The notes: generated by a model not told the origin, from the letters alone. 64,000 nucleotides of DNA from an uncultured Candidatus Rokubacteria bacterium (GCA_963708025.1 CAVPSB010000035.1:10800-74799), one strand, 5' to 3'; counted from the first letter of the stretch, positions 628-33,715 are shown. Translations and numbers: made by a program.

Positions 628-2592
628 GTGAGCGGGACGCCGTTCCCCCGGCTCTTCAGCCCGCTTCCGCTGGGCCCCCGGATCGCGCGGAACCGGATCG
701 TCAGCACGCCCCACACCACCGGGTTCGCCGTCGACGGCTTCCCCCGGGAGCGCTGGCTCGCCTACGAGCGCGAGAAGGCGCGCGGTGGGTGCGGGACGAT
801 CATGATGTTCGGCTCGGCCTCGGTCCACCCGAGCTCGCCCGTCGCCGCCGCCGGTGGGGTCGAGCTGTGGGACCCGGCGGTGGTGCCGCACCTGCGCCGT
901 ATGGCCGAGGCCGTCCACGCCGAGGGCGCCCTCTGCCTGGCCCAGGTCTCGCACTGGGGCCGGGGCGGGGTCGGGCCCTACGCCGACTGGCCGCTGCTGG
1001 CGCCGTCGGACGAGCCCGACGAGACGCACCACGGGATCCCGCGCGCTCTCTCGAAGGCCGAGATCCACGAGCTGGTCGACGCGTTCGGCCGCGCGGCCGC
1101 TCACGTCAAGCGCGGGCGGCTACGACGGCGTGGACCTCTCCTGCTGGGGCGGGCACCTCACCGAGCAGTTCCTCTCGCCGGTCAGCAACCGGCGGACGGA
1201 CGAGTACGGCGGCTCCCTCGACAACCGCATCCGGTTCTGCCTGGAGACGCTGGAGGCGGTGCGCGCCGCCGTCGGGCCCGACCTGATCGTCGGCGCGCGG
1301 CTGACCGGCGACCAGCTCGTGGAGGGCGGCCTGACCCTGGAAGACACCCAGGCCATCGCCGCCCGGCTGGCGGCCACCGGCCGGCTCGACTACGTCACGG
1401 TGAGCGGCGGCTCGACCGAGCAGTACCGCGCGCTCCCCTACGTCACCCCGACCTACTACGCGCCGCTCGGCCTCTACAACCGCTTCGCCGCCGCGGTGAA
1501 GGCGGTCGTGCAGGTCCCGGTCATCGTCGCCGGGCGGATCGTCCATCCCGCCCAGGCCGAGGAGGTGCTGGCCCAGGGCTGGGCGGACGCCGTCGCCATG
1601 ACCCGCTCGCTCATCGCCGACCCCGCGCTGCCCCGGAAGGCGAGGGACGGGCGGGTGGACGAGATCCGGATCTGCACCGGAGCCAGCGAGGCCTGCATCG
1701 GCCGGCGCATCCAGGGCAAGACGATCGCCTGCATCCAGAACCCGGCGATCGGCCGGGAGGCGGAGCTGGCCGACGTCCGCCCGGCCGACCGCGCGCGCCG
1801 GGTCGTGGTGGCCGGCGGCGGCGTCGCGGGGCTGGAGGCCGCCCGCCTGGCGGCGCGGCGCGGTCACCGGGTCGTCCTCTTCGAGGCGGCCCTCGAGCCG
1901 GGCGGCCAGCTCCGCGCGGTCTGGCGCTCGCCGGCGCGCCAGAGCTACCAGGAGGTCGTGCGCTGGCTCGTCGCCGAGGTCGGGCGGGCAGGGGTGGAGG
2001 TCCGGCTGGGGACCGAGGCGACGGCCGCGTCGGTCCTGGCCGAGCGGCCTGACGTCGTCGTGGTCGCCACCGGGGTCCGCCCTCGCGCGCTCGAGGTGCC
2101 CGTCGCGCCGGACGCCCACGTCGTGACCGCGGAGGACGTGCTGCTCGACCGCGTCGCGCCCGGGCCCCGGTGCCTGGTCGTGGACTACCACGGCCACATG
2201 CCGGGGCCGAGCGCCGCCGAATTCCTCGCCGACCGCGGGTGCCGGGTCGAGATCGCGAGCCGCTTCTTCACCGTCGGCGAGGACATCGACCCCCGGCTCA
2301 AGACCAGCGTGTACACGCGGCTCTACCAGAAGGGCGTGGTGCTGACGCCCCTGGCCGTGGTCCGGGAGATCGGCGCGGGCTGGGTCCGGCTGGCCAACAC
2401 CCTGACCGGCCAGGAGCGGGTCGTCGAGGTGGACACCGTGGTCACGGCCCTCGGCGGCCGGGCGGACGACGCCCTGGCGCGCGGCGCTCGACGGCCAGGG
2501 CCGTCGAGCTCCACGTGGTGGGCGACGCCCTGGCGCCGCGCACGATCCACGACGCCATCCTCACCGCCACCCGCGCCGCCCGGCGCTTCTGA
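628..2592 (+). pseudogene. Old-yellow-enzyme (FMN) plus FAD/NAD(P) domain oxidoreductase, 2,4-dienoyl-CoA reductase family; frame broken about 3 times
   Basis: GTG at 628 follows GAGGGA. The N-terminus (VSGTPFPRLFSPLPLGPRIARNRIVSTPH...) lies in ORF 406..2052. The core (GYDGVDLSCWGGHLTEQFLSPVSNRRTDEYGGSLDNR...VVVAGGGVAGLEAA) lies in ORF 854..2656. The end (VVGDALAPRTIHDAILTATRAARRF) lies in ORF 2170..2592. Frame changes are near 1112, 2487 and 2505. Confidence 0.8.
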
Positions 2593-2667
2593 CCCAGCGG
2601 GGCCGGGCATTGATGAGGGGTCGTGGTTCTTCCGCATAAAAGAGTACGACGAATGACGGAGGCGAAT

Positions 2668-2925
2668 ATGGCAACCAACGTCAAGATCACCAGCCGCCCT
2701 GCTGGCGTGATCCGGCATGCCGGTACTGCGATCCGCTCGGTCAGCCCTGGCGTGATCGCGAAAGCGCTCGGGGCCGAGAAGGCTGTATCCAGGGAGAACG
2801 TTCTCGGCGCTCCGATTAGTCTGCACGCATTGCGACGGGCGCTGGAGAGCCGGGTTCGCTCCACGGGCGGGCGGCCGGCTCTGGAAGGGGCAACGAAGAT
2901 CCAGAAGATTCCGCTGAGAGCCTGA
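2668..2925 (+). CDS. hypothetical small protein; possibly the N-terminal part of a frameshifted ribbon-helix-helix-like protein
   Basis: ATG at 2668 lies 5 nt after GGAGG, inside ORF 2623..2925. The region is less G+C-rich than its flanks. After the stop, the +1 frame reads EDWSRLEELAAQLSQEGVSATAGQVASVMVHSQLQL (2924..3106). Confidence 0.3.
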   Translation: MATNVKITSRPAGVIRHAGTAIRSVSPGVIAKALGAEKAVSRENVLGAPISLHALRRALESRVRSTGGRPALEGATKIQKIPLRA

Positions 2926-3139
2926 AGACTGGTCTCGACTCGAAGAGTTGGCCGCCCAACTCTCTCAGGAAGGCGTCTCGGCTACAGCTGGACAGGTCGC
3001 GAGCGTAATGGTCCACAGCCAGTTGCAGCTCGTCGCACCATCAGCCACGCGCCAAGGGAGAACCTCTCGACGCCCGGCGACGCGGCGGGTAACCGGACAT
3101 CGATGATCACTCGTAGCCCAGGGGCTGCCGCTAGCCACA

Positions 3140-3297
3140 TTGATCTCACTGCATTCGGATACATCGTTCGCGACGACGCCCTGGCCCGCGCGCTCGACGG
3201 GCAGGGCCTCGAGATCGACGTCGTGGGCGACGCCCTGGCGCCGCGCACGATCCACGACGCCATCCTCACCGCCACCCGCGCCGCCCGGCGCATCTGA
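3140..3297 (+). pseudogene. stub B: orphan C-terminal ~50 codons of a flavin reductase paralogue
   Basis: Reads IDLTAFGYIVRDDALARALDGQGLEIDVVGDALAPRTIHDAILTATRAARRI with no upstream body. The last 63 nt (3235..3297) match 2530..2592 at 62/63. Confidence 0.75.
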
Positions 3298-3451
3298 CCC
3301 GGCGGGGCGCGCCACGATCCAGTGGCCGACGGCGAGGGTGCCGATGTGACGCGAGAAGCTCGCGCCCGATCCTCGCGGCAGACCCGGCCGCCAGGCGTGA
3401 CCGAGTGCGCGGCCCGCCAAGGGGTCGCGGGGACGGCAACCGGCGCCGGGC

Positions 3452-4384
3452 TCAGCGGGCCGTGGGGGGCGCCGCCCGGTTGACCACGGTCATGGCGGTC
3501 GCGATCATGGCGCCGATGTCGGCGACGTTGGCGGGCACGATCAGGCTGTTGGTGGTCCGGGCCAGCTCCCCGAACTTGGTGATGTACTGCTCGGCCACCC
3601 GGAGCTGCACCGCCTCGACGCCCCCGGGCACCTGGATCGACTCCGCGACCCGGCGGATGCCCTCCGCGGTGGCGGCGGCGATGGAGAGGATGGCCGAGGC
3701 CGCGCCCTCCGCCTCGTTCATCTCCTGCTGACGCTTCGCCTCGGAGGCCTTGATGACCTGCTGCTTCTGGCCCTCGGCCACGTTGACGGCGGCGTCCCGC
3801 TCGCCCTCGGAGGTCAGGATGACGGCCCGCTTCTCCCGCTCCGCCCGCATCTGCTTCTCCATGGCGGCCAGCACGTCCTTGGGCGGGGTGATGTTCTTGA
3901 TCTCGTAGCGGAGCACCTTGATCCCCCACGGCTCCGATGCCTTGTCCAGCTCGCTGACGACCTGGCTGTTGATTTGGGTGCGCTCCTCGAAGGTGCGGTC
4001 CAGGTCGATCTTGCCGACCTCGCTGCGCAGGGTGGTCTGGGCGAGCTGGCTGATGCCGAACATGTAGTCGGCCACGCCGTAGGAGGCACGCTCCGGGTTC
4101 ATCACCTTGAGGTAGAGGACGCCGTCGACGCCGACCTGGACGTTGTCCCGCGTGATGCAGATCTGCTCGGGGATGTCGACGGCCGTCTCCTTCAGGGAGT
4201 GGCGGTACCGGATGGCGTCGAGGAAGGGGATCAGCAGGTGAAAGCCCGCGTGGAGCGTCGCCCGGTACTTGCCGAGCCGCTCCACGACGTAGGCGCTCTG
4301 CTGCGGTACCACCCTCGCCGTCTTCGCGATGACGATGATGACCAGCACGGCGAGCACCACGAAGACGACCAGCGCTTCCGTCAT
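3452..4384 (-). CDS. SPFH/band-7 (stomatin/prohibitin-like) membrane protein
   Basis: 310 aa with an N-terminal TM helix, then VVPQQSAYVVERLGKY...GVDGVLYLKV...TLRSEVGKIDLDRTFEER...VLRYEIKNITPP and a coiled-coil tail. Confidence 0.95.
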   Translation of the reverse strand: MTEALVVFVVLAVLVIIVIAKTARVVPQQSAYVVERLGKYRATLHAGFHLLIPFLDAIRYRHSLKETAVDIPEQICITRDNVQVGVDGVLYLKVMNPERASYGVADYMFGISQLAQTTLRSEVGKIDLDRTFEERTQINSQVVSELDKASEPWGIKVLRYEIKNITPPKDVLAAMEKQMRAEREKRAVILTSEGERDAAVNVAEGQKQQVIKASEAKRQQEMNEAEGAASAILSIAAATAEGIRRVAESIQVPGGVEAVQLRVAEQYITKFGELARTTNSLIVPANVADIGAMIATAMTVVNRAAPPTAR

Positions 4385-4400
4385 GCGCCCCTCCTCGGGA

Positions 4401-4832
4401 CTACTCGGCGACGACGCCGAGGGTGAGCCCGTCCACGCGCGTCACGCGGCAGCGCTGCCCGCGAGCGAGGGTGGTCGAGCCGTCGTTGTGCGCGGTCCAC
4501 GTCGTGCCACGCAGCTCCACCTTGCCGACCGCGCCCGGCGCCAGATCCTCGATCGGGACGGCGATTTCCCCGACGACGCCGTCGATCACGGGCGCCGACC
4601 CTGGCCCCCGCGTTCGCGCGAGGAGCGGCCCGCGAAGCACCACGAGGGCCAGCACGGACACGACCGAGAACAGCAGCCACTCCATCCACGCCGGGCCGGC
4701 CAGGCCCAGGCCGGCCAGAATGCCCACGACGAGGGCCCCCGTCCCGAAGAAGAGGAAGAAGAACCCCATCGGCGTGAACAGCTCGAGCCCCACCAGCAGG
4801 AAGCCCAGGAGGATCCAGAGCCACCAGGTCAT
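4401..4832 (-). CDS. NfeD-family membrane protein, partner of the SPFH protein
   Basis: Internal ATG at 4832 (MTWWLWILLGFLLVGLELFTP...). TM helices are followed by a C-terminal OB-like GKVELRGTTWTAHN. It lies immediately upstream of the SPFH gene on the same strand. Confidence 0.9.
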   Translation of the reverse strand: MTWWLWILLGFLLVGLELFTPMGFFFLFFGTGALVVGILAGLGLAGPAWMEWLLFSVVSVLALVVLRGPLLARTRGPGSAPVIDGVVGEIAVPIEDLAPGAVGKVELRGTTWTAHNDGSTTLARGQRCRVTRVDGLTLGVVAE

Positions 4833-5016
4833 GCGCGCGCGAGCGTCGGCAGCCGGTCGATGGCGGCGCGAACGGCGCCCGTCACGCCCGGCATTCGAAG
4901 AGGAGTGCGTCGGCCACGGCGCGACGAGTCTAGCGGCCGGGCGTCCGGACGTCAACTGCTCGCATCCGGAGGCGCCTGCTCCGGAGGCGCCACCGGCGAG
5001 CGCCGGGCTCGTGCCG

Positions 5017-5230
5017 TTACCCGCCCCGTCGGCCCGGCGGGAAGATCACGAACGTCGTGCTTTCGCCGGGTCGCGTCTGGTAGCGGATCTGGCCCCCGTG
5101 GGTCTCGATGATCCGCTGGCAGATCGAGAGGCAATTGGCCGAACGCCAGTTGACCGGGAGCCTCTTCAGGCAGATCATCCGGCGCGTCGAGCGGCTCGCT
5201 GGCATCCGACGTGATCGAGAGACCCACCCG
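5017..5230 (-). pseudogene. fragment of a histidine-kinase HATPase_c domain (C-terminal remnant)
   Basis: ORF 5017..5304 ends ...ANCLSICQRIIETHGGQIRYQTRPGESTTFVIFPP, resembling the G2 box to the C-terminus of sensor kinases. There is no HisKA or sensor part upstream. Confidence 0.4.
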
Positions 5231-5429
5231 GGAGCGGAGGCGATGAGGAGCAGGGGTCGAAGCAGCGGAGGTGTCTCTGAACAGGGCCGTCGGATTGACC
5301 ACACTCACAAGCGCGAGGCTGCGGACGGTCCATGCGTCGCGAGCATGACTTTCCTCGACCTACCGGAAAGGATGAACGAGCTGGGCGACTGGGTGATCCG
5401 CCCGTTCAAACGCACGAGGGAGGGGAGAC

Positions 5430-6234
5430 GTGGGTCCATATCGGAAATCCCGGGCTGAGTCGATTCGCGTGCGCGTGTGGGGGCTCGGTGTCCTGTTCGC
5501 GGTCGCGCTGACGATCGCGTTGGCGTCGGCCGAGCCCGTCGCCGTCCGCTACGCCGAGACCGTCACCCACGGCTTCCTCGTGCTGCGCGGGGCGAACGGC
5601 GACGTCCTCGCCTATGGCGAGTTCGTGCAGGCGCCCATCGAGGGGCAGCGCATGGAGAGCCGCCTCGTGTTCCGCTTCAAGAACGGCTCCCTCTGGGACG
5701 AGACGGTGACGTTCACGCAGCAGAAGGTGTTCCGGCTGATGAGCTATCACCACATCGAGCGCGGCCCGTCCTTCCGCGAGTTCGACCGACGTGACCTTCG
5801 ATCGCGACACCGGCCGTTACCGAGCCAAGGTCAACGACAAGACCGACGACGGCAAGATCGAGCTGCCGGAAGACCTCCACAACGGGATCACGGGCACCAT
5901 TTTGAAGAACCTGACGCCCGGCACCGCCGCCGCCGGCCACATGTTCGCGTTCACGCCGAAACCGTACCGGCTCGACACCGAGCTGCGCGCGGAGGGCGAA
6001 GATAGGTTTTCCGTGGGCGACGTCGCGCGCACGGCCACGCGCTACCTCGTGAAGATGGAGCTGCGCGGTCTCACCGGCCTCGTGGCGTCGCTTATCGGCA
6101 AGGACCCCCCCGAGGTGCGCTACTGGATCACGACCGGGCCCGCGCCCGGGTTCGTGAAGTTCGAGGGGCCGATGTACCTGAAGGGCCCGCGCTGGCGCGT
6201 CGAGTTGACGGGGCCGCGCTGGCCCAAGCGCTGA
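5430..6234 (+). CDS. hypothetical secreted protein (one frameshift near 5788)
   Basis: A signal-peptide-like VRVWGLGVLFAVALTIALASA lies in ORF 5430..6005. The continuation VTFDRDTGRYRAKVNDKTDDGKIELPEDL... lies in ORF 5791..6234. Confidence 0.55.
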
Positions 6235-6668
6235 CTCAGCGCTCCGCCGGGCGCCTCGCGCAGCATCGCGATCAGGACCTCGCGGTTCTGCGCGGTTGTG
6301 GTGACCTCGCGCGGGAACGTGATGCGCGCGATCGACAGCGGTTGACGTCCTCGTTTGCCCGCGCTTTACCGGCTCGCGCCGGATCGTGGGCGCGGTGACG
6401 GGGCCCCACGCGGTGGGGCGGCTCCTGACGGCGCTCGGGCTCGCCGCGGAGCCGCCACCGGCCAGCTCCCGCCCGACCCGTTCCTGACCTTGCGGCCTTC
6501 GCCGCGCTCGCCGTTACCCCGGCGCCGGGACCCGCTCTGCCCGCGGCCCCGCCGGGGCCCCTCCCATCCCCGCGGCCCCGACCGTTGCCGGTCCGGCCCG
6601 AGCACGCTACACTCACGCGCATGAAGGTCGGGAGCCGCCCCGAGAGAAGCTCCCGATAGGAGGATCCG

Positions 6669-7970
6669 ATGGCCGAGGACACCGTCGTTGCTCGCCGAGG
6701 CTTCTTGCGCGTGGCCGCTGGTGCGACTGCTGCCGCCGGCGTCACGGGACTCCTGCCCCGGCGCGCGCGGGCCCAGGGACAGGCCGGGCGCGCGCTGAAG
6801 CTCGGATATGTGAGCCCGCAGACGGGGCCGCTCGCCGGCTTCGGCGAGACCGACAGCTTCGTGGTCGGCGGCGTGCGAAAGGCGGCCGGCAAGGGGCTCG
6901 CGATCCGCGATCGCACGCATCCCATCGAGATCCTCGTGCGCGACAGTCAGTCCGATCCCAACCGGGCGGCCGAGGTGGCGTCGCGCTTGATCCTGACCGA
7001 CAAGATCGACCTCATGCTGGTCGCGAGTACGCCGGAGACGACCAACCCCGTGGCCGATCAGTGTGAGGCCAACGGGATGCCCTGCGTCTCCACCATGTGC
7101 CCATGGCAGCCCTGGTTCTTCGGTCGCGGCGGCAAGCCCGAGACCGGTTTCAAGTGGACGTATCACTACTTCTGGGGGCTCGAGGACATCATCGGGGTGT
7201 TCGTCAACATGTGGAACACGCTGCCCACCAACAAGGTCGTCGGGGCCATCTGGCCCAACGACGGCGACGGCAACGCCTGGAGCGACAAGCAGCGCGGCTT
7301 CCCGCCCGAGCTCGCGAAGGCCGGGTACAAGGTCGTGGACCCCGGGCGCTATCCGAATCTGAGCGACGACTTCTCCGCGCAGATTTCCACGTTCAAGAAC
7401 GAGAAGGTCGAGATCGTCACCGGCGTGCCGCTGCCGCCGGACTGGACGACCTTCTGGAAACAGGCCGCCCAGCAGGGCTTCCGCCCCAAGATCGCCACCG
7501 TCGGCAAGGCGCTGCTCTTCCCGCGCTCGGTCGAGGCGCTGGGCGAGCTGGGCGACGGCATGTCCACCGAGGTGTGGTGGTCGCCCCAGCATCCCTTCAA
7601 ATCGTCGCTCACGGGAGCCACGGCGAGTCAGCTCGCCGCCACCTATACGCAAGAGACGAAGAAGCAGTGGACCCAGCCGCTCGGCTTCATCCATTCGCTG
7701 TTCGAGGTCGGATTCGACGTGCTCAAGCGGGCGAGCAGCGTGGACGACAAGAACGCCGTGCTCGCGGCCATCAAGGCGACCAGCCTCGACACGATCGCCG
7801 GGCCCGTCAGCTGGGGCAAGGGGCCGGTGGCGAACGTGACCAAGACGCCGCTGGTCGGCGGCCAGTGGGGGCGCGGCAAGGGCGTTCCCTTCGACATGAC
7901 GGTCGTCACCAACCGGAGCGCGCCCAGCATCCCCACCTCCGGCAAGCTACGGCCGCTCAAGCAGGCGTAG
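6669..7970 (+). CDS. branched-chain amino acid-type ABC transporter substrate-binding protein (type 1 PBP) with Tat signal
   Basis: 433 aa. Contains RRGFLRVAAGATAAAGVTG and LKLGYVSPQTGPLAGFGE. AGGAG precedes the ATG. Confidence 0.9.
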   Translation: MAEDTVVARRGFLRVAAGATAAAGVTGLLPRRARAQGQAGRALKLGYVSPQTGPLAGFGETDSFVVGGVRKAAGKGLAIRDRTHPIEILVRDSQSDPNRAAEVASRLILTDKIDLMLVASTPETTNPVADQCEANGMPCVSTMCPWQPWFFGRGGKPETGFKWTYHYFWGLEDIIGVFVNMWNTLPTNKVVGAIWPNDGDGNAWSDKQRGFPPELAKAGYKVVDPGRYPNLSDDFSAQISTFKNEKVEIVTGVPLPPDWTTFWKQAAQQGFRPKIATVGKALLFPRSVEALGELGDGMSTEVWWSPQHPFKSSLTGATASQLAATYTQETKKQWTQPLGFIHSLFEVGFDVLKRASSVDDKNAVLAAIKATSLDTIAGPVSWGKGPVANVTKTPLVGGQWGRGKGVPFDMTVVTNRSAPSIPTSGKLRPLKQA

Positions 7971-7998
7971 TCCGACGGCGCTTCTCGCGCTCGAGGAG

Positions 7999-8697
7999 GT
8001 GTCCCGGGCGTTCGGCTCGCTGCGGGTCCTCGATCGCCTCACGCTGGCCGTCGGCGAGAACGAGGCGGTGGGTGTCATCGGGCCGAATGGCGCCGGCAAG
8101 ACGACGGCACTCCACCTGATGGCCGGACGCCTCCGCCCCGATCGCGGCCGGGTCGTGTTCGACGGGCGCGACATCACGGGGATGCCGGCTCACACCCGCT
8201 GCCGGGCCGGCATTGCGCTGACGCACCAGATCCCGCATCCCTTCGAGGCCCTGACGGTGTTCGAGAACGTCCTGGTCGGCGCCACGCACGGCGGCGGCCG
8301 GACCGAGCGCGACGCCTATGCCGTCTGCCTCTCGACCCTCGAGCTGGCCGGGCTCACCGACAAGGCGAACGTGCGCGCGGGTGTGCTGACGTTGCTCGAA
8401 CGGAAGCGCCTGGAGCTGGCGCGGGCGCTCGCGACCGGACCGCGCGTCCTCCTGCTCGACGAGATCGCGGGCGGGCTGACCGAGCACGAGGTGCAGGAGG
8501 TGGTCGGCGTCGTCCGGCACGTCCGTGCGCAAGGTGTCGCGATCCTCTGGATCGAGCACATCGTTCACGCGCTCCGCTCGGCCGTGGATCGGCTCGTCGC
8601 CATCCACCTCGGGAGGAGTCTGATGGACGGGCCGCCGGACGCCGTCATGGCGAGTCCCGAAGTGCAGCGGGTCTACCTCGGAATCGACGTGGCGTGA
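7999..8697 (+). CDS. livG: ABC transporter ATP-binding protein, LivG-like
   Basis: Walker A GPNGAGKTT, LLLDEIAGGL, and its position in the liv-type operon. The true start may lie upstream, but no start codon is visible there. Confidence 0.85.
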   Translation: MSRAFGSLRVLDRLTLAVGENEAVGVIGPNGAGKTTALHLMAGRLRPDRGRVVFDGRDITGMPAHTRCRAGIALTHQIPHPFEALTVFENVLVGATHGGGRTERDAYAVCLSTLELAGLTDKANVRAGVLTLLERKRLELARALATGPRVLLLDEIAGGLTEHEVQEVVGVVRHVRAQGVAILWIEHIVHALRSAVDRLVAIHLGRSLMDGPPDAVMASPEVQRVYLGIDVA

Positions 8698-9392
8698 CAC
8701 TGCTCGCCGTCCGCGACCTGTCGGCGTTCTACGGCGACTTCCAGGCCCTCTTCGGCGTCGCGCTCGACGTGGCCGAGGGCGAGACGGTGGCGGTGATCGG
8801 CGCCAACGGCGCCGGCAAGACGACGTTTCTCAGAGCGCTGGCCGGTGCCCTGCCGGTGGCTCGCGGCGCCGTCGTGTTCGCGGGCCGGCCGGTCGGCGGC
8901 CAGCCGCCGCACGTGCTCGTCGACCTCGGCATCGTCCTCGTGCCCGAGGGGCGGCGAATCTTTCCGAGCCTGTCCGTGCAGGAAAACCTTCAGATCGGCG
9001 CCTTCCGGCGGCGCGCCGGGCCGTGGACGCTCGAGCGCGTCTACCGGCTGTTCCCCGTCCTCGGCGAGCGACGCGATCAGCCCGGCACGAACCTCTCGGG
9101 GGGCGAGCAGCAGATGCTCGCGATCGGCCGCGGCCTGATGGCCAACCCGCGCCTCCTGCTCGTCAACGAGATGTCGCTCGGCCTGGCGCCGCTCGCCGTC
9201 AAGCAGCTCTACGAGGTGCTGGCCAGCGTCCAGCGCGAAGGGACCACGCTCCTGGTGGTCGAGGAGGACGTGAGTCAGGTTCTGGCGGTCGCGCAGCGTG
9301 TCTACTGTTTCCGCAAGGGGACTGTCTCGCTCGAGGGCGCACCCGCCGGGCTCAGCCGCGCCCAGATCTCGGCCGCGTACTTCGGAGCCTGA
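8694..9392 (+). CDS. livF: ABC transporter ATP-binding protein, LivF-like
   Basis: GANGAGKTT, LSGGEQQMLAIGRGLM, LLLVNEMSLGLAP. It overlaps the preceding gene by 4 nt. Confidence 0.9.
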   Translation: MTLLAVRDLSAFYGDFQALFGVALDVAEGETVAVIGANGAGKTTFLRALAGALPVARGAVVFAGRPVGGQPPHVLVDLGIVLVPEGRRIFPSLSVQENLQIGAFRRRAGPWTLERVYRLFPVLGERRDQPGTNLSGGEQQMLAIGRGLMANPRLLLVNEMSLGLAPLAVKQLYEVLASVQREGTTLLVVEEDVSQVLAVAQRVYCFRKGTVSLEGAPAGLSRAQISAAYFGA

Positions 9393-9395
9393 TCG

Positions 9396-10268
9396 ATGGC
9401 CTGGCTCGACACCGTCGTGCAGGGCGTCCTGCTCGGCGGCCTCTACGCGCTCTTCGCGACCGGGCTCTCGCTGATCTTCGGCGTCATGCGCCTGGTGAAC
9501 CTCGCCCACGGCGACTTCAGCATCCTGGCGGCCTTTCTCGCCGTCGTCGTCGTGGGGGCCCTCGGGCTCAACCCGCTGGTCGCGCTGGTCGTGGTGGTGC
9601 CCGTCATGGCGATGCTCGGCTACGTGCTGCAGCGGCTGGTGCTCAACCGGCTGCTGGGGCGCGGCATCCTGCCGGCCGTGCTCGTGACGTTCGGCTTCTC
9701 CATCGTCATCCAGAACGGCCTGCTCGAGACGTTCTCCGCGGACTCCCAGCGGCTCAACCCCGGCGGCATCGAGACGGCGAGTCTCGCCCTCGGCGGGGGG
9801 CTGGCCGTCGGCTGGTTTTCGTTGCTGACGTTCGCGGTGGCCGTCGGGCTCCTGGTCGGGCTCCAGCTCCTCATCGGCCGCACGGCGATCGGCCGCGCCT
9901 TTCGGGCGACCTCGGACGACGGCGAGACGGCGGCGCTGATGGGGATCGACACCCGGCGACTCTACGGACTCGCGATGGCGCTGTCGCTGGCCATCGTCGC
10001 GGTCGCCGGGGTCTTCCTCGGCATCCGCACGACCTTCACGTTCGCGAGCGGCCCCGACCGGCTCCTCTTCGCCTTCGAGGCGGTGATCATCGGGGGGCTT
10101 GGCTCCTTGTGGGGCACGCTGGTCGGCGGCGTGATCCTCGGCGTGGCGCAGACGATCGGCGCGAAGCTCTCGCCGGGCTGGGGCGTGCTGACCGGACATC
10201 TGGTGTTCCTCGGTGTCCTGCTGTTGCGCCCGTCCGGTCTGTTCGCGAAGTCCCGGCGCGTGGACTGA
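9396..10268 (+). CDS. livH: branched-chain amino acid ABC permease, LivH-like
   Basis: 290 aa polytopic protein (MAWLDTVVQGVLLGGLYALFATGLSLIFGVMRLVNLAHGDF). Confidence 0.9.
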   Translation: MAWLDTVVQGVLLGGLYALFATGLSLIFGVMRLVNLAHGDFSILAAFLAVVVVGALGLNPLVALVVVVPVMAMLGYVLQRLVLNRLLGRGILPAVLVTFGFSIVIQNGLLETFSADSQRLNPGGIETASLALGGGLAVGWFSLLTFAVAVGLLVGLQLLIGRTAIGRAFRATSDDGETAALMGIDTRRLYGLAMALSLAIVAVAGVFLGIRTTFTFASGPDRLLFAFEAVIIGGLGSLWGTLVGGVILGVAQTIGAKLSPGWGVLTGHLVFLGVLLLRPSGLFAKSRRVD

Positions 10269-11278
10269 TGGCGCCCGCCACCCTGGCGGTCGAGCGCACC
10301 ACCCGGGCCAGCCGCGCCGGCGCGGTCGGCGCCGCTGTCCTGCTCGCCGGGCTGATCGCCCTGCCGTTGACGCGCGACGCTGGACTCATGCGTATGGTCG
10401 TCGAGCTCATCGCGTTCCTGGTGCTGGCGCAGATGTGGAATCTGCTTGCCGGCTATGCGGGCCTCGTCTCGATCGGGCAGCAGGCGTACGTCGGCCTCGG
10501 CGGCTACGCGCTCATCGTGCTGGCCGACGATCTCGGGGTGAATCCGTTCCTCGCGGTGCCTCTCGCCGGCGTGGCGGCGGCCGGATTCGCCCTCCCCACC
10601 GCCGCGCTCGTGTTCCGCTTCCGCGGCGGCTACTTCGCGGTCGGCACTTGGGCGGTCGCCGAGGTCTATCGGCTGCTCATCGCCAACACGACGGCGCTCG
10701 GGCGGGGCACCGGGCGCACGTTGAAGGCGGTGTTCCCGCTCGTCCGGGAGACGCGCGAGCTGGTGACGTATGGCCTCGCCGTGGCGGTTGGCGTCGGCGC
10801 GATGGTCGCCGTGTACTTCTACGTGCGCTCGCGCCTGGGTGTCGGTCTGATGGCCGTTCGTGACAGCGAGCCGGCGTCGGAGAGCCTCGGCGTCAACGTG
10901 TTTCGCACCAGGCTCACGGTCTATCTGATCGCGGCCTTCGGAACGGGAGTGACGGGCGCGCTCATCTACCTGAACCTGCTCCGTATCTCGCCCGACGCGG
11001 CGTTTTCGATCAACTGGACCGCCTACACGATCTTCATCGTCGTGATCGGCGGTCTCGGCACGCTGGAGGGACCGATCGTGGGCGCGGTCGTCTTCTTCCT
11101 GCTCCGCGAGCTGCTGGCCGACTACGGCGCCTGGTACATGATCCTGCTCGGCTCGCTCGCCGTGCTGACGATGATGTGCTATCCGCAGGGCCTGTGGGGT
11201 CTGGTCGCCGAGCGGTGGGATCTGCATCTCTTCCCGGTGCAGCGACGCGTCAGGATGGGCGCAGCCGCGAGGCGATGA
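10268..11278 (+). CDS. livM: branched-chain amino acid ABC permease, LivM-like
   Basis: ATG at 10268 overlaps the livH stop (ATGA). Contains LAQMWNLLAGYAGLVSIGQQAYVGLGGY, taken from the long ORF 9023..11278. Confidence 0.85.
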   Translation: MAPATLAVERTTRASRAGAVGAAVLLAGLIALPLTRDAGLMRMVVELIAFLVLAQMWNLLAGYAGLVSIGQQAYVGLGGYALIVLADDLGVNPFLAVPLAGVAAAGFALPTAALVFRFRGGYFAVGTWAVAEVYRLLIANTTALGRGTGRTLKAVFPLVRETRELVTYGLAVAVGVGAMVAVYFYVRSRLGVGLMAVRDSEPASESLGVNVFRTRLTVYLIAAFGTGVTGALIYLNLLRISPDAAFSINWTAYTIFIVVIGGLGTLEGPIVGAVVFFLLRELLADYGAWYMILLGSLAVLTMMCYPQGLWGLVAERWDLHLFPVQRRVRMGAAARR

Positions 11279-11346
11279 CGAGCGCCGCGACGGAGGTGAG
11301 CTCCGTCGGATACACTTGGGTCCCCATCCCCCCGCCGCGCCCGCCC

Positions 11347-11409
11347 CTGGCGCCGCGCACGATCCACGACGCCATCCTGACCGCCACCTGCGCCGCCCGG
11401 CGCATCTGA
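11347..11409 (+). repeat. stub C: third copy of the last 63 nt (including stop) of the flavin reductase gene
   Basis: 61/63 identical to 3235..3297. Reads LAPRTIHDAILTATCAARRI-stop, with no homologous coding sequence upstream. Confidence 0.85.
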
Positions 11410-11468
11410 CGAGGCCGGGGCGCCCTGTTGTCTTGCACAAGTGCCATCGTCGTATTACACTGGTCGGC

Positions 11469-11720
11469 GTGAAGACCCTCACCGTGCGATTGCCCGAGGC
11501 CCTGGTCGCGGAGATCGAAGCCGAGTCTCGCGAACGTCGGCGCTCGAAGTCCGACGTTGTTCGGGAACGCTTGAGCCGCGTCGCCGGGCCGCGCGCGAGG
11601 CCCGCGTCCCCGGCCATTGCCGATCTCGTGGGCTCGGTCGGTGGGTTGCCGGCCGATCTGAGTGGGCAGAAGAAGGCCTACTTGAAGACCACGGGTTATG
11701 GCCGGAAGCGCGCTCGTTGA
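11469..11720 (+). CDS. vapB: ribbon-helix-helix (CopG/VapB-type) antitoxin
   Basis: GTG at 11469. Reads VKTLTVRLPEALVAEIEAESRERRRSKSDVVRERL. It overlaps the PIN gene by 23 nt. Confidence 0.8.
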   Translation: MKTLTVRLPEALVAEIEAESRERRRSKSDVVRERLSRVAGPRARPASPAIADLVGSVGGLPADLSGQKKAYLKTTGYGRKRAR

Positions 11721-12108
11721 CGCCGGTTTTCTGATCGCCCTTCTGAGCCGCCGGGACCGCCATCACGCATGGGCGGCGGCCCAATCCCCGGGTCTTGCCC
11801 CGCCTTGGAAAACCTGCGAAGCGGCCCTCTCGGAGGCCTTCCATCTTCTCGGGGCTCGGGGCCGACCTAGCCTCGCCACGCTTCTTCGCCGCAGCGCTGT
11901 GGTCTCCGCCTTCGACCTCACGGACGAACTGGACCGAGTCTTGAATCTCATGCAGAAGTACGCCGACGTCCCGATGAGTCTTGCGGATGCCTGCCTCGTG
12001 AGGATGAGCGAAACCCTGGCCGATCCTGTCATCCTGACCACCGATGCTGATTTCCGCATCTATCGCCGCCACGGTCGTCACGTTGTTCCCTGCGTGACCC
12101 CGTACTGA
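11698..12108 (+). CDS. vapC: PIN-domain ribonuclease toxin VapC
   Basis: 136 aa. Contains ALVDAGFLIALL...CEAALSEAFHLL...MSLADACLV...ILTTDADFRIY, the acidic PIN signature. Confidence 0.85.
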   Translation: MAGSALVDAGFLIALLSRRDRHHAWAAAQSPGLAPPWKTCEAALSEAFHLLGARGRPSLATLLRRSAVVSAFDLTDELDRVLNLMQKYADVPMSLADACLVRMSETLADPVILTTDADFRIYRRHGRHVVPCVTPY

Positions 12109-12168
12109 CGGAATTCGAACCCGCGTGTGGGTCTGCCACGCTGCGACGTCGGGAGCCGGACGACCCGG

Positions 12169-12353
12169 CCTACTCCGGTGGCGGAATGAGATTCAGCAGG
12201 GGGCTCGTCCCGGGTGGCCATCTCCGCCCGCGCCACGTTGACGAGGACGGCGGTCGGCTTCATGGCCCGAAGCTCGCGGTCCCGACGAGGCCGCGGGTCC
12301 GGGGCGTGAGCGGCAGCGCGAGCGCCGGGTAGTCGGCGCGCCTCAGCACGCTG
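12169..12353 (-). pseudogene. internally deleted remnant of the 3' third of the 2-hydroxyacid dehydrogenase gene
   Basis: Aligns to 13212..13262 and 13482..13616 of the intact gene, with about 219 nt missing between. ORF 12078..12434 contains LRAMKPTAVLVNVARAEM, versus LRAMKPTALLVNVARAEI in the intact gene. Confidence 0.8.
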
Positions 12354-12554
12354 TAGCGCACGGCTGAGGTCAACCCCCAACAAATCTCTCGCGTCGTCGT
12401 CGCGCGAGCTGATGAACGCGGCGGGGAGCGTCAACGGTCGGAGGTAGCTCCGGGTGGGCAGTTGGACGGGCCGCGCTCGAGGTCACGGGCCGGTGAAACG
12501 CCCTGCCACTCTACGCTATCATCGGGTGGCCGCCAGGCCGAGGGGGATGCCGCC

Positions 12555-13049
12555 ATGACGATGTACTGGAAGGAGATCACGGTCAACTGGGGTGAGTCCG
12601 ACCCGTTCGGGCTCGTCTACTACCCCCGGATCGTCGCCTGGTTCAACGACACCGAGCACGAGCTGTTCCGGACCATCGGCTACCCGATCGAACAGATGAT
12701 CAAGAACGATCGCACGACCTTCGTGATGGGCGAGATCCACTTCCGCTTCATCGGCCCCGCCGCCTACGGCGACCGGATCATCACGACCATCACGCTGGCC
12801 GAGATCGGCGAGCACACGCTGCACTGGAACTGCAAGGCCAAGAACGCGCTCACCGGCGCGGAGGTCAGCGAGGGCCGGGCCACCCGTGTGTACGCGCGCA
12901 TCAACGAGGACGGCACGCTGAAGGCACACCCCATCCCGGAAGAGATGCGGAGCGCGCTCCGCGAGCTGGGCGATCTCAAGCATCTCCGGCCGAACAGCGG
13001 GCCGTCCAAGCTGCCGGCCGCGAGCCACCTGCGGCAGCAGCCGCCCTAG
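12555..13049 (+). CDS. 4HBT/YbgC-like acyl-CoA thioesterase
   Basis: ATG at 12555 follows AGGGGGA. Reads MTMYWKEITVNWGESDPFGLVYYPRIVAWFNDTEHELFR, a hot-dog fold signature. Confidence 0.8.
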   Translation: MTMYWKEITVNWGESDPFGLVYYPRIVAWFNDTEHELFRTIGYPIEQMIKNDRTTFVMGEIHFRFIGPAAYGDRIITTITLAEIGEHTLHWNCKAKNALTGAEVSEGRATRVYARINEDGTLKAHPIPEEMRSALRELGDLKHLRPNSGPSKLPAASHLRQQPP

Positions 13050-13052
13050 ATG

Positions 13053-13205
13053 CTTCGGGGGGGTGTCGGAACACCCCCCCGATGCCCCCCCGCCGTTGCG
13101 CCGGCGAAGCCGGCGCTCGGAGCGCTGTTCGATGCACGCCTCGCGGATCGACTTTCGCGAGGCTACGCCGACACGCCCTAGGCCATTTCGGGAGGCTCGG
13201 AAAGC
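13053..13205 (-). repeat. REP-A element (inverted orientation) with G7-hairpin core
   Basis: cttcgggggggtgtcggaacacccccccgatgcccccccg... aligns to the reverse complement of 18091..18210. Confidence 0.7.
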
Positions 13206-13213
13206 CCTTGGTC

Positions 13214-14195
13214 CTACTCCGGTGACGAGATCTGATTCAGGGGGGGCTCGCCCCGCGCGGCCCGGTGGATGTTCTCCGCGATGAGGGTCGCGCGCGCCTC
13301 CACCATGCCTTCGGTCCAGCCGGACACGTGCGGCGTCATGAGGACGTTCGGCAGCTCGTGGAACGGCCGTTGCGCGGGCAGCGTCGGGTGGGGATCGGAC
13401 GGGTACCGGTACCAGACGTCGAGGGCGGCGCCCGCGATCCGCCGCTCGGCCAGCGCCTCGTAGAGCGCGTCCTCGTCGACGATCTCCGCCCGCGCCACGT
13501 TGACGAGGAGGGCGGTCGGCTTCATGGCCCGAAGCTCCGGGTCCCCGAGGAGGCCGCGGGTCTCGGGGGTGAGCGGCAGGGTGATCGCCAGGTAGTCGGC
13601 GCGCGTCAGCACGCTGCTCGAGGGCGTCGGGCCCCCGGAGGACGACGAGGCCCTGGCGGTCGGGCTGCGTGGCGTCGCGGCGGATCGCCAGGACCGTCAT
13701 GTCGAACGCCCGGGCGCGCCGGGCCAGGGCCTGGCCGATCCGGCCGTAGCCGAGGATGCCGAGCGTCTTGCCGGCCAGCTCCGGCCAGGGCGCCGGGGGC
13801 GGCGCCGACACCGCCCACTGGCTCTCCCAGTCTCCGCGCCGGAGGCGGGCGTCGAGGCGGCAAAAGCCGCGGCTCAGTGCCAGCATGGCCCCGATCACGT
13901 ACTCCGCGATGCCGCGCTCGTGGCCATAGGCATTCGCCAGCCACGTGCCGGGCGAAAGCGCGGCTCGGTCGATCCGGTCGAGGCTGGCGCCGGGCACCTG
14001 GACGAGCCTGAGGCGTTGGGCCGACGCCCCCATCTCGCGGGTGAACGCCATGCTGACGAGGACGTCCACATCGGGAAGCGGGGAGCCGATCCCGGCCTCC
14101 TCGTCCACGACGACGTCGCACGGGATCGCCAGGTGGGACCGGATTGGCTCCGCGAGGCGGGCCGCGAAGACACCGGCGAAGGCGACGCGAAGCAT
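13214..14195 (-). CDS. D-isomer-specific 2-hydroxyacid dehydrogenase (glyoxylate/hydroxypyruvate reductase-like), one frameshift near 13615
   Basis: The N-terminus MLRVAFAGVF...GKTLGILGYGRIGQALARRARAFDMTVLAIRR lies in ORF 12519..14270. The C-terminus LTRADYLAITLPLTPETRGLL...LMTPHVSGWT lies in ORF 13214..13612. Confidence 0.85.
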
Positions 14196-14281
14196 GCTTG
14201 GCCATCTTGTTCGGCAACGACCAGGGATGCAATTACCTGGCAGGTAATGTCCGCCAAAGGCTGCCGGCATATACTGGCGGG

Positions 14282-22754: not shown

Positions 22755-22851
22755 ACCTCCCGCCTACCCCGATCCGTCGACGGCCTTCGGCCTTTGGCCC
22801 CCTTCCCCACTGTTCGACGGCCTTCGGCCTTTGGCTGGGGGGAGGGGAGGT
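22755..22851. repeat. REP-B palindromic element
   Basis: Arms acctcccgcctacccc / ggggggaggggaggt enclose two copies of gacggccttcggcctttgg. Confidence 0.7.
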
Positions 22852-24514: not shown

Positions 24515-24630
24515 GTCGTCGTTCGGACGGCCTTCGGCCTTTGGGGTCGTCGCCGATCCTCGGCGTACTCGGAGTACGCCTGCGGTCGGCGACTCCCTGC
24601 GTCTCTTGGACGGCCTTCGGCCTGGGGGCG
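24515..24630. repeat. composite palindromic repeat in the 5' leader of the binding-protein gene
   Basis: Two ggacggccttcggcct motifs flank a perfect 9-bp inverted repeat, ggcgtactc-g-gagtacgcc (24562..24580). Confidence 0.65.
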
Positions 24631-24671
24631 CTGCTCGCTCCTCGGCCCCGCCCCCGAGAACCTTGACTCAT

Positions 24672-26346: not shown

Positions 26347-26347
26347 G

Positions 26348-27175: not shown

Positions 27176-27178
27176 CGC

Positions 27179-30173: not shown

Positions 30174-30244
30174 GCTTTCCGGCGCGGCGTCAAGCCGCGG
30201 ACGCCCCGAAGGTCGGTGATTCGCGCTCGGGCTGGCCTACGACC

Positions 30245-31697: not shown

Positions 31698-31778
31698 CGC
31701 CCGACGCGTCGATGATACGATACACGCGCGACGGACGGACGATCCACCCACGCCCGGACTCTCACAGGAGCGACGACC

Positions 31779-32888
31779 ATGGCGGAAGCGCGGCTGAACC
31801 TGCCCTTCACCGGGCTCGTGTCCTTCATGCGCGTCCCGGCCTGCACGGATCTCACGGCCATCGACGCGGACATCGCGATCCTGGGCACGCCGACCGACGA
31901 GGGCTCGCCGTGGAAGCCGGGCGCCCGCTTCGCGCCGCGGAAGATCCGGGAGCTGTCGGTCAAGTACGCGGGGTACGGGCCGACGCAGAACCAGCTCGGC
32001 TACTACGACATCGAGGAGGACCGGCGCTACCTGGAGTACGAGCGGCAGCACCGCCGCATCGTCGACTGCGGGGACTCCGACATCATCTACACCAACGTCC
32101 GGCGCACCTTCGACAACATCACGCGCGACGTCAAGGCGATCCTGAAGGCGGGGGCCTTCCCGGTGGTCATCGGCGGCGACCACGCCGTCACCTACCCGGT
32201 CGTCCGGGCCTACCAGGAGCGGCTCAACGTCGTCCACTTCGACGCCCACCTGGACTACCGGCCGTTCATCCACGGGGTGCAGTGGGCCAACGGGAATCCC
32301 ATCCGGAACGTCTCGCAGCTCAAGAACTGCCACCACATCATCCAGGTCGGCATCCGGAGCCTCCGCACGAGCCAGGCCGACGTGGCGGACTCGCGGGCGC
32401 GCGGGAACGACGTCGTGACCATCCCCGAGTTCCGGCGGCGGGGTCACCAGGCCATCGTCGACCGGCTGCCCAAGGGCGAGCCGGTCTACGTCTCGATCGA
32501 CATCGACGTCCTGGACCTGCCGCTGGTTCCGGGGTGCGCGTCGTCGGAGGTGAACGGGCTCACCTACGACGAGCTGCGCCAGACGCTCTTCGCCATCGCG
32601 CGGAGCCGGGAAGTCATCGGCTTCGACCTGGTCGAGGTGAACCCGATGCTCGACGTGGCCTCGGACAACACCTCGCTGATCGCCGCCCAGCTCATCATCG
32701 AGTTCCTCGGGCGGATCGTCGAGCACCCGGGCTACCGCAAGCGCCACCCCATGCGCGAGGCCGCCCCCACCAACGGCCGCGGCCGCCCGGCGCCGGGCCG
32801 GCCGGCGCCGGCGACCTCCTCGGACGGCGGCCGTCTGCGGACCGGCAGCGCCCGGGTGGGAGCCGCCCGCTCAGCTCGAAGGCGGTGA
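31779..32888 (+). CDS. arginase/agmatinase/formiminoglutamase-family ureohydrolase
   Basis: Contains ILGTPTDEGS, GGDHAVTYP, HFDAHLDY, SIDIDVLD and GFDLVEVNP, the Mn-binding motifs. Confidence 0.9.
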   Translation: MAEARLNLPFTGLVSFMRVPACTDLTAIDADIAILGTPTDEGSPWKPGARFAPRKIRELSVKYAGYGPTQNQLGYYDIEEDRRYLEYERQHRRIVDCGDSDIIYTNVRRTFDNITRDVKAILKAGAFPVVIGGDHAVTYPVVRAYQERLNVVHFDAHLDYRPFIHGVQWANGNPIRNVSQLKNCHHIIQVGIRSLRTSQADVADSRARGNDVVTIPEFRRRGHQAIVDRLPKGEPVYVSIDIDVLDLPLVPGCASSEVNGLTYDELRQTLFAIARSREVIGFDLVEVNPMLDVASDNTSLIAAQLIIEFLGRIVEHPGYRKRHPMREAAPTNGRGRPAPGRPAPATSSDGGRLRTGSARVGAARSARRR

Positions 32889-32946
32889 GCGCCTCCTCTG
32901 GCTGCTTCATGCTGACTACCCCCCGGGGTATACTCCGAAGCAGAGT

Positions 32947-33546
32947 GTGCTGATGGCGACCGCCTTGGCCTCACGACACTTCACCGCACTGGAGTTCGAG
33001 CGGATGGCTGCGATGGCCATCTTCGGCGACGACGAGCGTGTCGAGCTGCTGGATGGAGTGGTTGTCCCCATGACGCCGATCGGTGACCGCCACATCGGTT
33101 GTGTCAACTACCTCACGGACTGTCTGGGCGACCGCCTCCGGGGCCGCGCCCTCATCCAGGCTCAGAGCGCGATCCAGCTCGCGCCCGACTGGGTTCCCCA
33201 GCCGGATGTCGCCATCCTGCGACGCCGCCAGGACTACTATCGGAAGGGCAAGGCTCGGCCTGAGGAGGTCTTCCTGCTCATCGAGGTGGCGGACACTTCG
33301 GCCAGCCTCGATCGCGACGTCAAGCTGCCAGGCTACGCCCGCGGGGGAATCCCGGAGGTGTGGCTGGTCGATCTCGACGCCGATCTCATCCTGGTGGCAC
33401 GCGACCCGAAACCGGCGGGGTACGCGGTCATCGCCTCCCATGCTCGCGGCTCGGCTCTCCGACTCCCCGGCTTCCCGGACGTCACGCTGACCGTCGATGA
33501 GATACTCGGTCCGCTGGCATCCGACGCGCGTGGCGACAGCCGGTAG
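32947..33546 (+). CDS. Uma2-family (DUF820) restriction-endonuclease-fold protein
   Basis: 199 aa. Contains FERMAAMAIFGDDERVELLDGVVVPMTPIG..H and PDVAIL...LLIEVADTS...D...K...Y...GIPEVWLVDL. The start could also be the ATG at 32953. Confidence 0.85.
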   Translation: MLMATALASRHFTALEFERMAAMAIFGDDERVELLDGVVVPMTPIGDRHIGCVNYLTDCLGDRLRGRALIQAQSAIQLAPDWVPQPDVAILRRRQDYYRKGKARPEEVFLLIEVADTSASLDRDVKLPGYARGGIPEVWLVDLDADLILVARDPKPAGYAVIASHARGSALRLPGFPDVTLTVDEILGPLASDARGDSR

Positions 33547-33548
33547 AC

Positions 33549-33715
33549 GACAACACGTCGCTGATCGCCGCCCAGGTCATCATCGAGTTCCTCGGGCGGA
33601 TCGTCGAGCACCCGGGCTACCGCAAGCGCCACCCCAGGCGGGAGGCCGCCCCCACCAACGGCCGCGGCCGCCCGGCCCGGAGACCGGTCGGCTCGAAGGC
33701 GGTGAGCGCCTCTCT
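33549..33715 (+). pseudogene. displaced duplicate of the agmatinase 3' end
   Basis: It starts 2 nt after the Uma2 stop. The first 128 nt differ from 32664..32791 at 4 positions by my manual alignment. Reads DNTSLIAAQVIIEFLGRIVEHPGYRKRHP. Confidence 0.85.

Follow-up and report, generated by a model that had tools for sequence, protein, structure and literature searches.

Within a 64,000-nt stretch of DNA from an uncultured Candidatus Rokubacteria bacterium (GCA_963708025.1 CAVPSB010000035.1:10800-74799; hereafter the window), three genes are accompanied by displaced copies of their own 3′ ends. The genes encode an OYE-type flavin oxidoreductase, a 2-hydroxyacid dehydrogenase and an agmatinase of the arginase family. 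At each locus the full-length gene is followed by unrelated open reading frames (ORFs; hereafter the cargo) and then, in the same orientation, by headless 3′ fragments of itself (hereafter stubs). Comparing these sequences with one another and with loci of other genomes, we favour, with moderate confidence, a reading in which the stubs would be recombination scars left by sequential displacement through homology-facilitated illegitimate recombination (HFIR). Recombination by the host's own machinery, with homology at one end and an illegitimate join at the other, fits the data.

In such a process a conserved gene, here that of the oxidoreductase, the dehydrogenase or the agmatinase, would be followed by different accessory genes in different relatives. 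DNA of a relative would enter the cell, or a paralogous locus of the same genome would act as the partner; homologous pairing would take place on one side, in the conserved gene or in a far flank, and the other side would be joined illegitimately at a microhomology. Where the join falls inside the span of the conserved gene, both versions of its 3′ end would be retained, one remaining on the full gene together with the cargo and the other becoming a headless stub on the former downstream gene. Repeated rounds would stack such arrangements, as may be the case at the oxidoreductase locus with its three ends, and the cargo genes (Uma2, vapBC and a thioesterase gene) would be small promoter-plus-ORF passengers found in many contexts, not the engine. 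We infer this process, the directions of the events (which partner was resident) and the common history that the oxidoreductase and dehydrogenase loci would have with the agmatinase locus from the comparisons described below.

Duplicated gene ends and a polymorphism at the agmatinase locus

The original prediction, made from the sequence of the window, had described a layout of gene, cargo and displaced 3′ end at three loci, and the repeats, when re-measured, were all present in direct orientation and near the positions it had given. Genes were annotated by Pfam, with matches to Oxidored_FMN and Pyr_redox_2, 2-Hacid_dh_C, Arginase, SPFH/NfeD, RHH and PIN, 4HBT_2, Uma2 and ABC_sub_bind, and the window was compared with loci and contigs from other genomes and metagenomes (L001-L185). 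Counting direct repeat pairs of at least 50 nt and at least 80% identity that lie 0.3-12 kb apart, we obtained five in the 64 kb of the window, two in 357 kb of other Rokubacteria loci and one in 985 kb of loci from other phyla. The density in the window is about 14 times that of the other Rokubacteria loci and far above background. The stubs vary in length from about 50 to about 400 nt across loci. Besides the three loci of the window, a full gene followed by same-orientation headless 3′ fragments was seen in L080, described below, and in L001, a locus of another Rokubacteria genome where a methyltransferase gene stands between a channel gene and its 65-nt downstream stub. In a further Rokubacteria metagenome-assembled genome (MAG; L008), a perfect direct repeat of about 50 nt (16377-16426 and 17092-17141) flanks a DinB-like gene on the opposite strand; unlike the stubs, this exact repeat could be a true att site or a target duplication of a small element.

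The agmatinase gene is intact (31779-32888, plus strand). Its end (copy A, 32664-32893) is followed on the same strand by a single-gene cassette encoding a Uma2 protein of the PD-(D/E)XK nuclease type (32911-33548; Pfam 8e-29), which the original prediction, mixing up the cargoes, had not assigned to this locus. Then come the agmatinase stub (copy B, 33549-33712), which runs from about codon 295 to past the stop region, and an ABC_sub_bind gene (33735-34726), both on the plus strand. The two copies are 94-97% identical over 32664-32806 and 33549-33692, and the repeat runs on to 32893 and 33712 with a tail indel of about 70 nt between them. They have in common a lineage-specific hypervariable tail that is missing in nine orthologues, and at three of the four sites that vary, the stub shows the derived state.

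The evidence for an occupied and an empty state of this locus comes from L163, a JGI metagenome contig of 1047 nt that is colinear with the window. Its positions 2-33 correspond to window positions 32862-32893 in the agmatinase tail (94% over 32 nt), 96-738 to 32906-33548 in the Uma2 cassette (96%), and 790-1047 to 34750-35007 in a DUF1989 gene (34755-35354, minus strand) that forms the right-hand shared flank in the same orientation (94%). Between Uma2 and DUF1989, L163 has 51 unrelated nt where the window has 1201 nt (33549-34749) with the agmatinase stub and ABC_sub_bind. The arrangement agmatinase-Uma2-DUF1989 exists on its own in L163, and the two sequences represent an occupied/empty polymorphism whose unit is the stub with its downstream gene, not the cargo with a replacement end. 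Since L163 lacks exactly the stub and ABC_sub_bind, the stub travels with the downstream gene. To judge by these alignments, the window locus looks like agmatinase-Uma2-DUF1989 merged with a second order, in which ABC_sub_bind would directly follow agmatinase. The common tail, the indel of about 70 nt, the tail of L163, which is of the A type, and the derived sites of the stub fit two alleles of the agmatinase end. This was the only polymorphism found. The search for empty sites envisaged by the original prediction yielded an occupied/empty pair, but not one in which the empty site equals the occupied site minus cargo and one repeat: the cargo is kept, and stub and downstream gene are gone.

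The stubs could also be decayed tandem paralogues, remains of additional gene copies that lost their 5′ portions by deletion, in which case no insertion would have taken place. An upstream tandem paralogue of the oxidoreductase is indeed present, and its end is a 70% copy (524-628); a second agmatinase paralogue is found near DUF1989 in L003 and L010, and the dehydrogenase stub is old (88-90% identity) and internally deleted. However, identity between a stub and the full gene next to it is 93-97% whereas true paralogues are at 70-77%, each remnant is a same-orientation 3′ end that reaches the stop codon and abuts the next gene, and the stub with ABC_sub_bind is polymorphic relative to L163. 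The hypervariable tail of the two agmatinase copies, unique to this lineage, bears out the earlier preference for insertion over old tandem paralogues, and we regard decay of paralogues as quite unlikely.

The nearest relatives of the agmatinase are encoded in MAGs of Candidatus Rokuibacteriota and Methylomirabilota (77-90% amino acid identity), and the window, with a GC content of about 70% and a strong third-position GC bias, comes from a Rokubacteria-like genome. A genome scan with the agmatinase yielded species-level relatives only, at this identity, with a different downstream neighbour in nearly all of them and no clean empty site. Exact look-ups of the agmatinase and Uma2 proteins of the window matched no recorded protein. 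In L004-L006, DUF1989 lies directly after agmatinase in inverted orientation. In the window, DUF1989 lies between two convergent ABC_sub_bind paralogues whose 3′ ends form a 167-nt inverted repeat (34556-34722 and 35392-35558, 77%); together with the opposite orientation of DUF1989 in L004-L006, this suggests that an inversion between the two arms may have taken place.

The layout had been read originally as the attL/cargo/attR topology of a discrete cassette element that targets gene 3′ ends. In a related scheme, a trans-acting or lost tyrosine or serine recombinase would have inserted elements resembling cis-mobilizable elements (CIMEs), since decayed, which accreted in tandem at attB sites in gene 3′ ends. 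Integration into the 3′ ends of protein-coding genes with tandem accretion is known for integrative and conjugative elements (ICEs) and CIMEs. The topology and the three direct copies of the oxidoreductase end point in this direction, as does the last 66 nt of that gene, which is 94-97% identical among copies 2-4 while the part upstream is more diverged. Yet Pfam scans gave no match to a recombinase or transposase in the cargo ORFs, in agreement with the original prediction, or in 20 further sizeable ORFs (14.5-37 and 45-64 kb), where 37.4-43.2 and 49-54.3 kb were read as translations only and the ORFs in 43.1-45.2, 47.6-49.2, 54.1-56.5 and 60.2-62.1 kb were outside the scan. All matches in the scanned ORFs were to metabolic, transport, toxin-antitoxin and Uma2 families, and none was to IntI or another integrase. 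The stubs of the oxidoreductase, dehydrogenase and agmatinase genes, of L080 and of L001 have no common core, their k-mer sharing not exceeding that of shuffled sequences. Stub lengths differ widely, the variable unit in L163 is not cargo with replacement end, and the Uma2 cassette, as shown below, has variable boundaries and apparently carries along a scrap of a former neighbour. What stands of the original interpretation is the layout and the topological insight, which is sound, that incoming DNA, foreign or from a relative, carries a replacement gene end. A new class of element with 3′-end targeting is not supported, given the variable stub lengths, the lack of a common core, the shifting boundaries and the microhomology junctions, and action of a recombinase seems to us rather improbable.

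Other kinds of machinery left no trace in these searches. No transposase was matched in the scanned ORFs and no inverted repeat pair flanks a cargo among those listed by an inverted-repeat scan, so that signs of a transposon, insertion sequence or miniature inverted-repeat transposable element were not found there; the duplications, variable and about 50-400 nt long, are unlike short target duplications of fixed length. Folds of stubs and junctions were no better than those of shuffled sequences (z from -1.6 to +1.0), which gave neither an attC-like nor another RNA structure, and the idea that the stubs are structured RNAs or terminators was dropped on these tests. ARAGORN found no tRNA gene in the window and Rfam no family. 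A tRNA T-arm-like scar that had been placed between two of the sites turned out to be a chance motif, as ARAGORN gave none, Rfam gave no tRNA match at E≤10, and GGTTCGAATYC is as frequent as expected by chance. In a block of lower GC content (49300-54000, 58-67%), the usual GC bias among codon positions is missing; inspected by eye, the block holds small ORFs of stress type (YtxH-like, cupin, a small membrane protein), and no integrase-like ORF is evident in its translations.

The Uma2 cassette and its junctions

The Uma2 unit is about 636 nt long and sharply bounded, reaching from GCTGACTACCCCCCGG(G/C)GTATACT, with its promoter-like TATACT box, to the stop codon. Its sequence includes GCTGACTMCCCCCCGGSGTATACT and, at the 3′ end, GACAGYCGGTAG, and the protein has close relatives in other metagenomes. 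We found the cassette behind three unrelated genes at 89-96% nucleotide identity: agmatinase, an MR_MLE gene (L080, 95%) and a glycosyltransferase gene (L164 and L165, 89%). The same cargo, as the original prediction had thought might be seen, is thereby flanked by other gene ends, with displaced fragments after it. In L080 a displaced MR_MLE piece follows Uma2 (2979-3029 versus 3923-3990). In L164 and L165 a headless methyltransferase fragment comes directly after Uma2, 92% identical between the two over 110 nt. L165 has in addition, downstream of the methyltransferase fragment, a glycosyltransferase fragment that is 99% identical to the L164 allele, whereas its own upstream glycosyltransferase end is only 84% identical to that fragment. 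In L080, the MR_MLE stub is directly preceded by 38 nt that match a more distal stretch of the L164 methyltransferase fragment at 89% identity and, to judge from this similarity, appear to be a scrap of a former neighbour carried along with the cassette. The boundaries of the moved DNA in L080, L164 and L165 are thus not fixed, which speaks for repeated imprecise recombination and against defined ends at which a transposase or integrase would act. The MR_MLE stub of L080 is truncated before its stop codon by an AbiEii-type toxin gene (weak Pfam match) with a small upstream ORF on the minus strand (3962-4790), which suggests a further insertion at the same spot.

Microhomology of 4-6 nt is present at both junctions for which the two partners are known. 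One is CTCGGA, which stands after the stop codon of Uma2 in both L163 and L080 and also in agmatinase, exactly where the stub starts. The other, in L080, is CCTC, the four nucleotides by which the homology to the methyltransferase (up to 3926) and the MR_MLE stub (from 3923) overlap.

The recurrence of one cassette at several gene ends could be explained by a homing-like spread of Uma2, in which the predicted nuclease would cut near gene ends and repair from a donor would copy the nuclease gene together with a spare end. Judged from the sequences, we find this the most interesting of the alternatives. Uma2 genes form an expanded family that was regarded as a solo toxin or selfish gene (PMC2701414). 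The cassette recurs at 95-96% identity behind agmatinase (window and L163) and MR_MLE and more distantly behind glycosyltransferase, always immediately behind a co-oriented gene, past its stop codon; in the window, L080 and L165 a displaced piece of that upstream gene comes after it; CTCGGA stands at the junction; and homing could explain one cassette at three unrelated gene ends. Against it, the same layout is seen with nuclease-free cargoes (the thioesterase, an ORF of no known family, the 8-kb transporter block and the methyltransferase of L001), L163 has Uma2 after agmatinase without the 130-nt stub, and the ends of the cassette are not constant. We give such homing little credence. A broader version, in which selfish single-gene cassettes spread without a recombinase, is unlikely as well: Uma2 would make the breaks, donor repair would copy the cassette and a spare end and displace the old end downstream, and vapBC, thioesterase and methyltransferase would ride the same breaks. 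If true, cassettes in Rokubacteria would have a general landing pad in the 3′ ends of genes.

A metagenome scan with Uma2 returned only relatives at 41-59%, of which about a third show flanking repeats. These were set aside as a test, as the ones inspected were mostly arrays of tandem Uma2 paralogues and not host-gene stubs. Such arrays were seen in other phyla (L090, L106, L147 and L152), and in L090 the spacers between the Uma2 genes (3746-3884 and 4579-4716) are repeated hairpins, CCCCCTCTCC...GGAGAGGGGG, that resemble repetitive extragenic palindromic (REP) elements.

The oxidoreductase and dehydrogenase loci

The oxidoreductase gene (640-2592, plus strand; Oxidored_FMN and Pyr_redox_2) was delimited by Pfam on two frame segments, ORF translations and a frame plot; in this assembly its reading frame changes near 1100, 2478 and 2500 and is spread over all three frames. 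Three direct copies of its end lie downstream of the paralogue end mentioned above, all on the plus strand. Copy 2 (2465-2605), joined to the full-length gene, has two 1-nt insertions relative to copy 3, its stop codon at 2590-2592 and about 13 shared nt past it. It is followed by a lower-GC cargo (2606-3171) with one small plus-strand ORF (start at 2668, apparent frameshift near 2915), for which family searches gave no known family. Stub 3 (3172-3310) is headless and retains the last 42 codons in frame with the stop codon; the ends at 2465-2603 and 3172-3308 are 93.5% identical over 139 nt. An 8-kb block delimited by ORFs and Pfam (3311-11344) holds SPFH (3452-4384, minus strand) and NfeD (4401-4955, minus strand), an unknown frameshifted gene (5430-6234) and a LivK/G/F/H/M-type ABC transporter (6669-11278). 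Behind it, stub 4 (11345-11428) consists of the last 68 nt or so of the oxidoreductase and 16 nt past the stop codon; the last 66-79 nt of the gene, which recur at 11345-11423, are 94-95% identical to copies 2 and 3. The motif TCGGATACA occurs only twice in the 64 kb (0.11 expected), at 3155-3163 and 11306-11314, which is 9 nt and about 31 nt before stubs 3 and 4. As these alignment positions are not equivalent, the pair may be chance or a trace of a shared history of the two stubs.

The end of stub 4 coincides exactly with the start of a vapBC cassette (11429-12108, plus strand), a module already named in the original prediction and borne out by Pfam (RHH antitoxin and PIN toxin). A promoter hexamer resembling a -35 box opens the unit, which closes with the stop codon of vapC. 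In other Rokubacteria contigs, copies with 80% nucleotide identity stand beside unrelated genes (L166 and L176), with homology from the promoter box to the stop codon, and the toxin family is abundant (7806 proteins at E≤1e-15, the best 120 of them 81-95% identical). At the sequence level, the abutment of stub 4 and vapBC fits a former adjacency of oxidoreductase and vapBC, for which the predicted parental junction is the oxidoreductase stop codon, 16 nt and TGTCTTGCAC.

At the dehydrogenase locus the full-length gene is on the minus strand (13214-14170; Pfam 2-Hacid_dh_C, ORF reading and frame plot), as is the stub (12169-12353). Here too the duplication is real, but the stub is not a plain 3′ end: it combines an internal part of about 150 nt (90% identical to the full gene) with the last 40 nt or so, including the stop codon, about 200 nt being deleted between them. 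The repeat itself aligns 13482-13616 with 12220-12353 at 90% identity. The cargo (12537-13213, plus strand) is a 4HBT_2 thioesterase gene (12555-13049; Pfam) followed by three perfect GC-rich hairpins (13050-13213) that fill the interval up to the stop codon of the dehydrogenase. Copies of the thioesterase ORF in two other gene contexts (L177 and L185) are 90-91% identical to it at the nucleotide level. REP-like GC-rich hairpin repeats of the type GGACGGCCTTCGGCC are found at 22770-22835 and 24517-24628, downstream of two SBP_bac_5-region genes. No homologues of the oxidoreductase or the dehydrogenase at 55% or above were present in the fetched loci, and the contexts of vapC and of the thioesterase elsewhere were unrelated neighbourhoods only, in which the parental orders were not seen.

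Of the genes that had been called intact, the agmatinase is so, but those of the oxidoreductase and the dehydrogenase are frameshifted in the assembly. Single-base frameshifts split many window genes (in 1-14300 and 36400-43100), including, besides the oxidoreductase, the unknown gene at 5430-6234 (near 5800), the dehydrogenase (near 13615-13640) and further genes within 37.4-43.1 kb. A D-aminoacylase-like amidohydrolase, an M24 peptidase, a PrpD-like gene and an oligopeptide ABC ATPase are also split. Relative to the orthologous L005 there are at least seven uncompensated single-base indels in 2.75 kb (36.4-39.2 kb), mostly +1 insertions and none in homopolymer runs. This load reflects either a low-accuracy long-read consensus or massive pseudogenisation, and the indel pattern looks like an error-prone long-read consensus. 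The dehydrogenase frameshift lies at most about 25 nt from the upstream edge of the repeat, in a G5 run or in CAG[C]GTG.

With such a consensus, an assembly of mixed strains could have concatenated haplotypes, and the duplicated ends would be an artefact. The many uncompensated +1 indels outside homopolymers, in comparison with L005 and in the further split genes up to 43.1 kb, are in line with this, and both inferred parental arrangements of the agmatinase locus could coexist in one sample. However, with a divergence of 3-12% and indels between them, the copies are not stutter; the cargo/stub junctions have no overlap that might mislead an assembler; and the layout is found in independent assemblies of other samples (L080, L165 and L001, the last a k127 contig). 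An artefact is therefore very improbable.

The proposed displacement in comparison with known systems

Several observations weigh against displacement by HFIR. The observed junction between Uma2 and the agmatinase stub equals the microhomology prediction minus 3 nt, and similarity between the cassette flanks of L163 and L080 is weak beyond CTCGGA, which makes the direction of the agmatinase event uncertain. Among the compared loci, which exclude this species, we found neither the second parent of that event, with ABC_sub_bind directly after agmatinase, nor an oxidoreductase followed directly by vapBC or SPFH. HFIR is rare in experiments (PMC5361080), and four events would have occurred here within 31 kb; the first arrival of Uma2 at three unrelated loci is unaccounted for by HFIR. 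The junctions were judged from assembled consensus alone. Lastly, in two of the genes once called intact, those of the oxidoreductase and the dehydrogenase, frameshifts lie near the upstream edge of the repeat, which simple HFIR does not predict. These may be consensus errors, given a window full of +1 indels, and we gave them no weight because the consensus looks error-prone. The proposal that they are junction scars was set aside on account of the window-wide +1 indels and the possible placement of the dehydrogenase shift in a G5 run about 25 nt off.

The closest likeness to the arrays of the window is provided by the orphan 3′ ends in the displacement arrays of Rhs, contact-dependent inhibition (CDI; cdiA-CT/cdiI orphans) and type VI secretion system (T6SS) effector-immunity loci, which have the same topology and for which HFIR was proposed (Jackson 2009, as cited in PMC5361080; Kirchberger 2017, PMC5361080). 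As in the window, an intact gene is followed there by same-orientation headless 3′ fragments, with no integrase at work. Each fragment there keeps its former downstream gene, as would be the case for the agmatinase stub, one of whose parental orders is seen in L163. HFIR, with its homologous anchor in the conserved part, is the proposed process in both, and the newest arrivals would adjoin the intact gene. They differ in that theirs are divergent toxin domains under diversifying selection with immunity genes, whereas the window has ends of ordinary metabolic enzymes at 93-97% identity and unrelated accessory neighbours. Toxin 3′ domains with cognate immunity genes were not found at the three loci, which encode an Oxidored_FMN reductase, a 2-Hacid_dh and an arginase-family agmatinase, and no selective logic is evident for the retention of the orphans.

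HFIR has been described in naturally transformable bacteria (de Vries & Wackernagel 2002, Prudhomme 2002 and Meier & Wackernagel 2003, as cited in PMC5361080 and PMC2884548), and homology-assisted illegitimate recombination was argued to create much small-scale genome diversity (PMC2884548). The laboratory events share with the window one homologous anchor and one microhomology junction (4-6 nt here) and a gain of DNA without a recombinase. They are rare and come from transformation assays, whereas here the junction lies inside the span of the anchor gene and leaves a duplication. CIME/ICE accretion likewise yields gene ends as direct repeats around cargo, three-copy tandem arrays and a replacement end that keeps the gene whole, but here no recombinase was found in the scanned ORFs, no core is conserved, the cargo is as small as one 0.6-kb gene, and the polymorphic unit is stub and downstream gene.

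In the minimal mobile elements of Neisseria and in chromosomal integration hotspots, small cassettes swap in a slot between conserved genes via host recombination. These cassettes also lack machinery of their own and the content of the slot differs between strains; in contrast to the window, they move by double homologous crossover and leave no duplicated ends, whereas here arrangements were added rather than swapped. Integron cassettes, too, are ORF-sized or promoter-plus-ORF units found in many contexts and stacked in arrays. The window differs from them by having no attC hairpins, no IntI match in the scanned ORFs, boundaries that are not fixed, and flanking repeats that are host gene ends.

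The topology and the mechanism have thus been proposed elsewhere, and what would be new here is displacement with orphan ends outside toxin loci, in ordinary enzyme genes. A caution follows for annotation: direct repeats of gene ends around a small cargo ought not to be taken for att sites unless a recombinase or a fixed core is found. The bounded Uma2 cassette behind three unrelated genes is a testable side lead for a family that is large and uncharacterised. If displacement by HFIR is the correct explanation, orphan gene ends would not be peculiar to polymorphic-toxin loci but would mark in general where illegitimate recombination, additive and anchored in homology, has taken place. The stubs would then be dated fossils of former gene neighbourhoods, and would trace how accessory genes accumulate in the very large genomes of soil bacteria that are poor in classical mobile elements.

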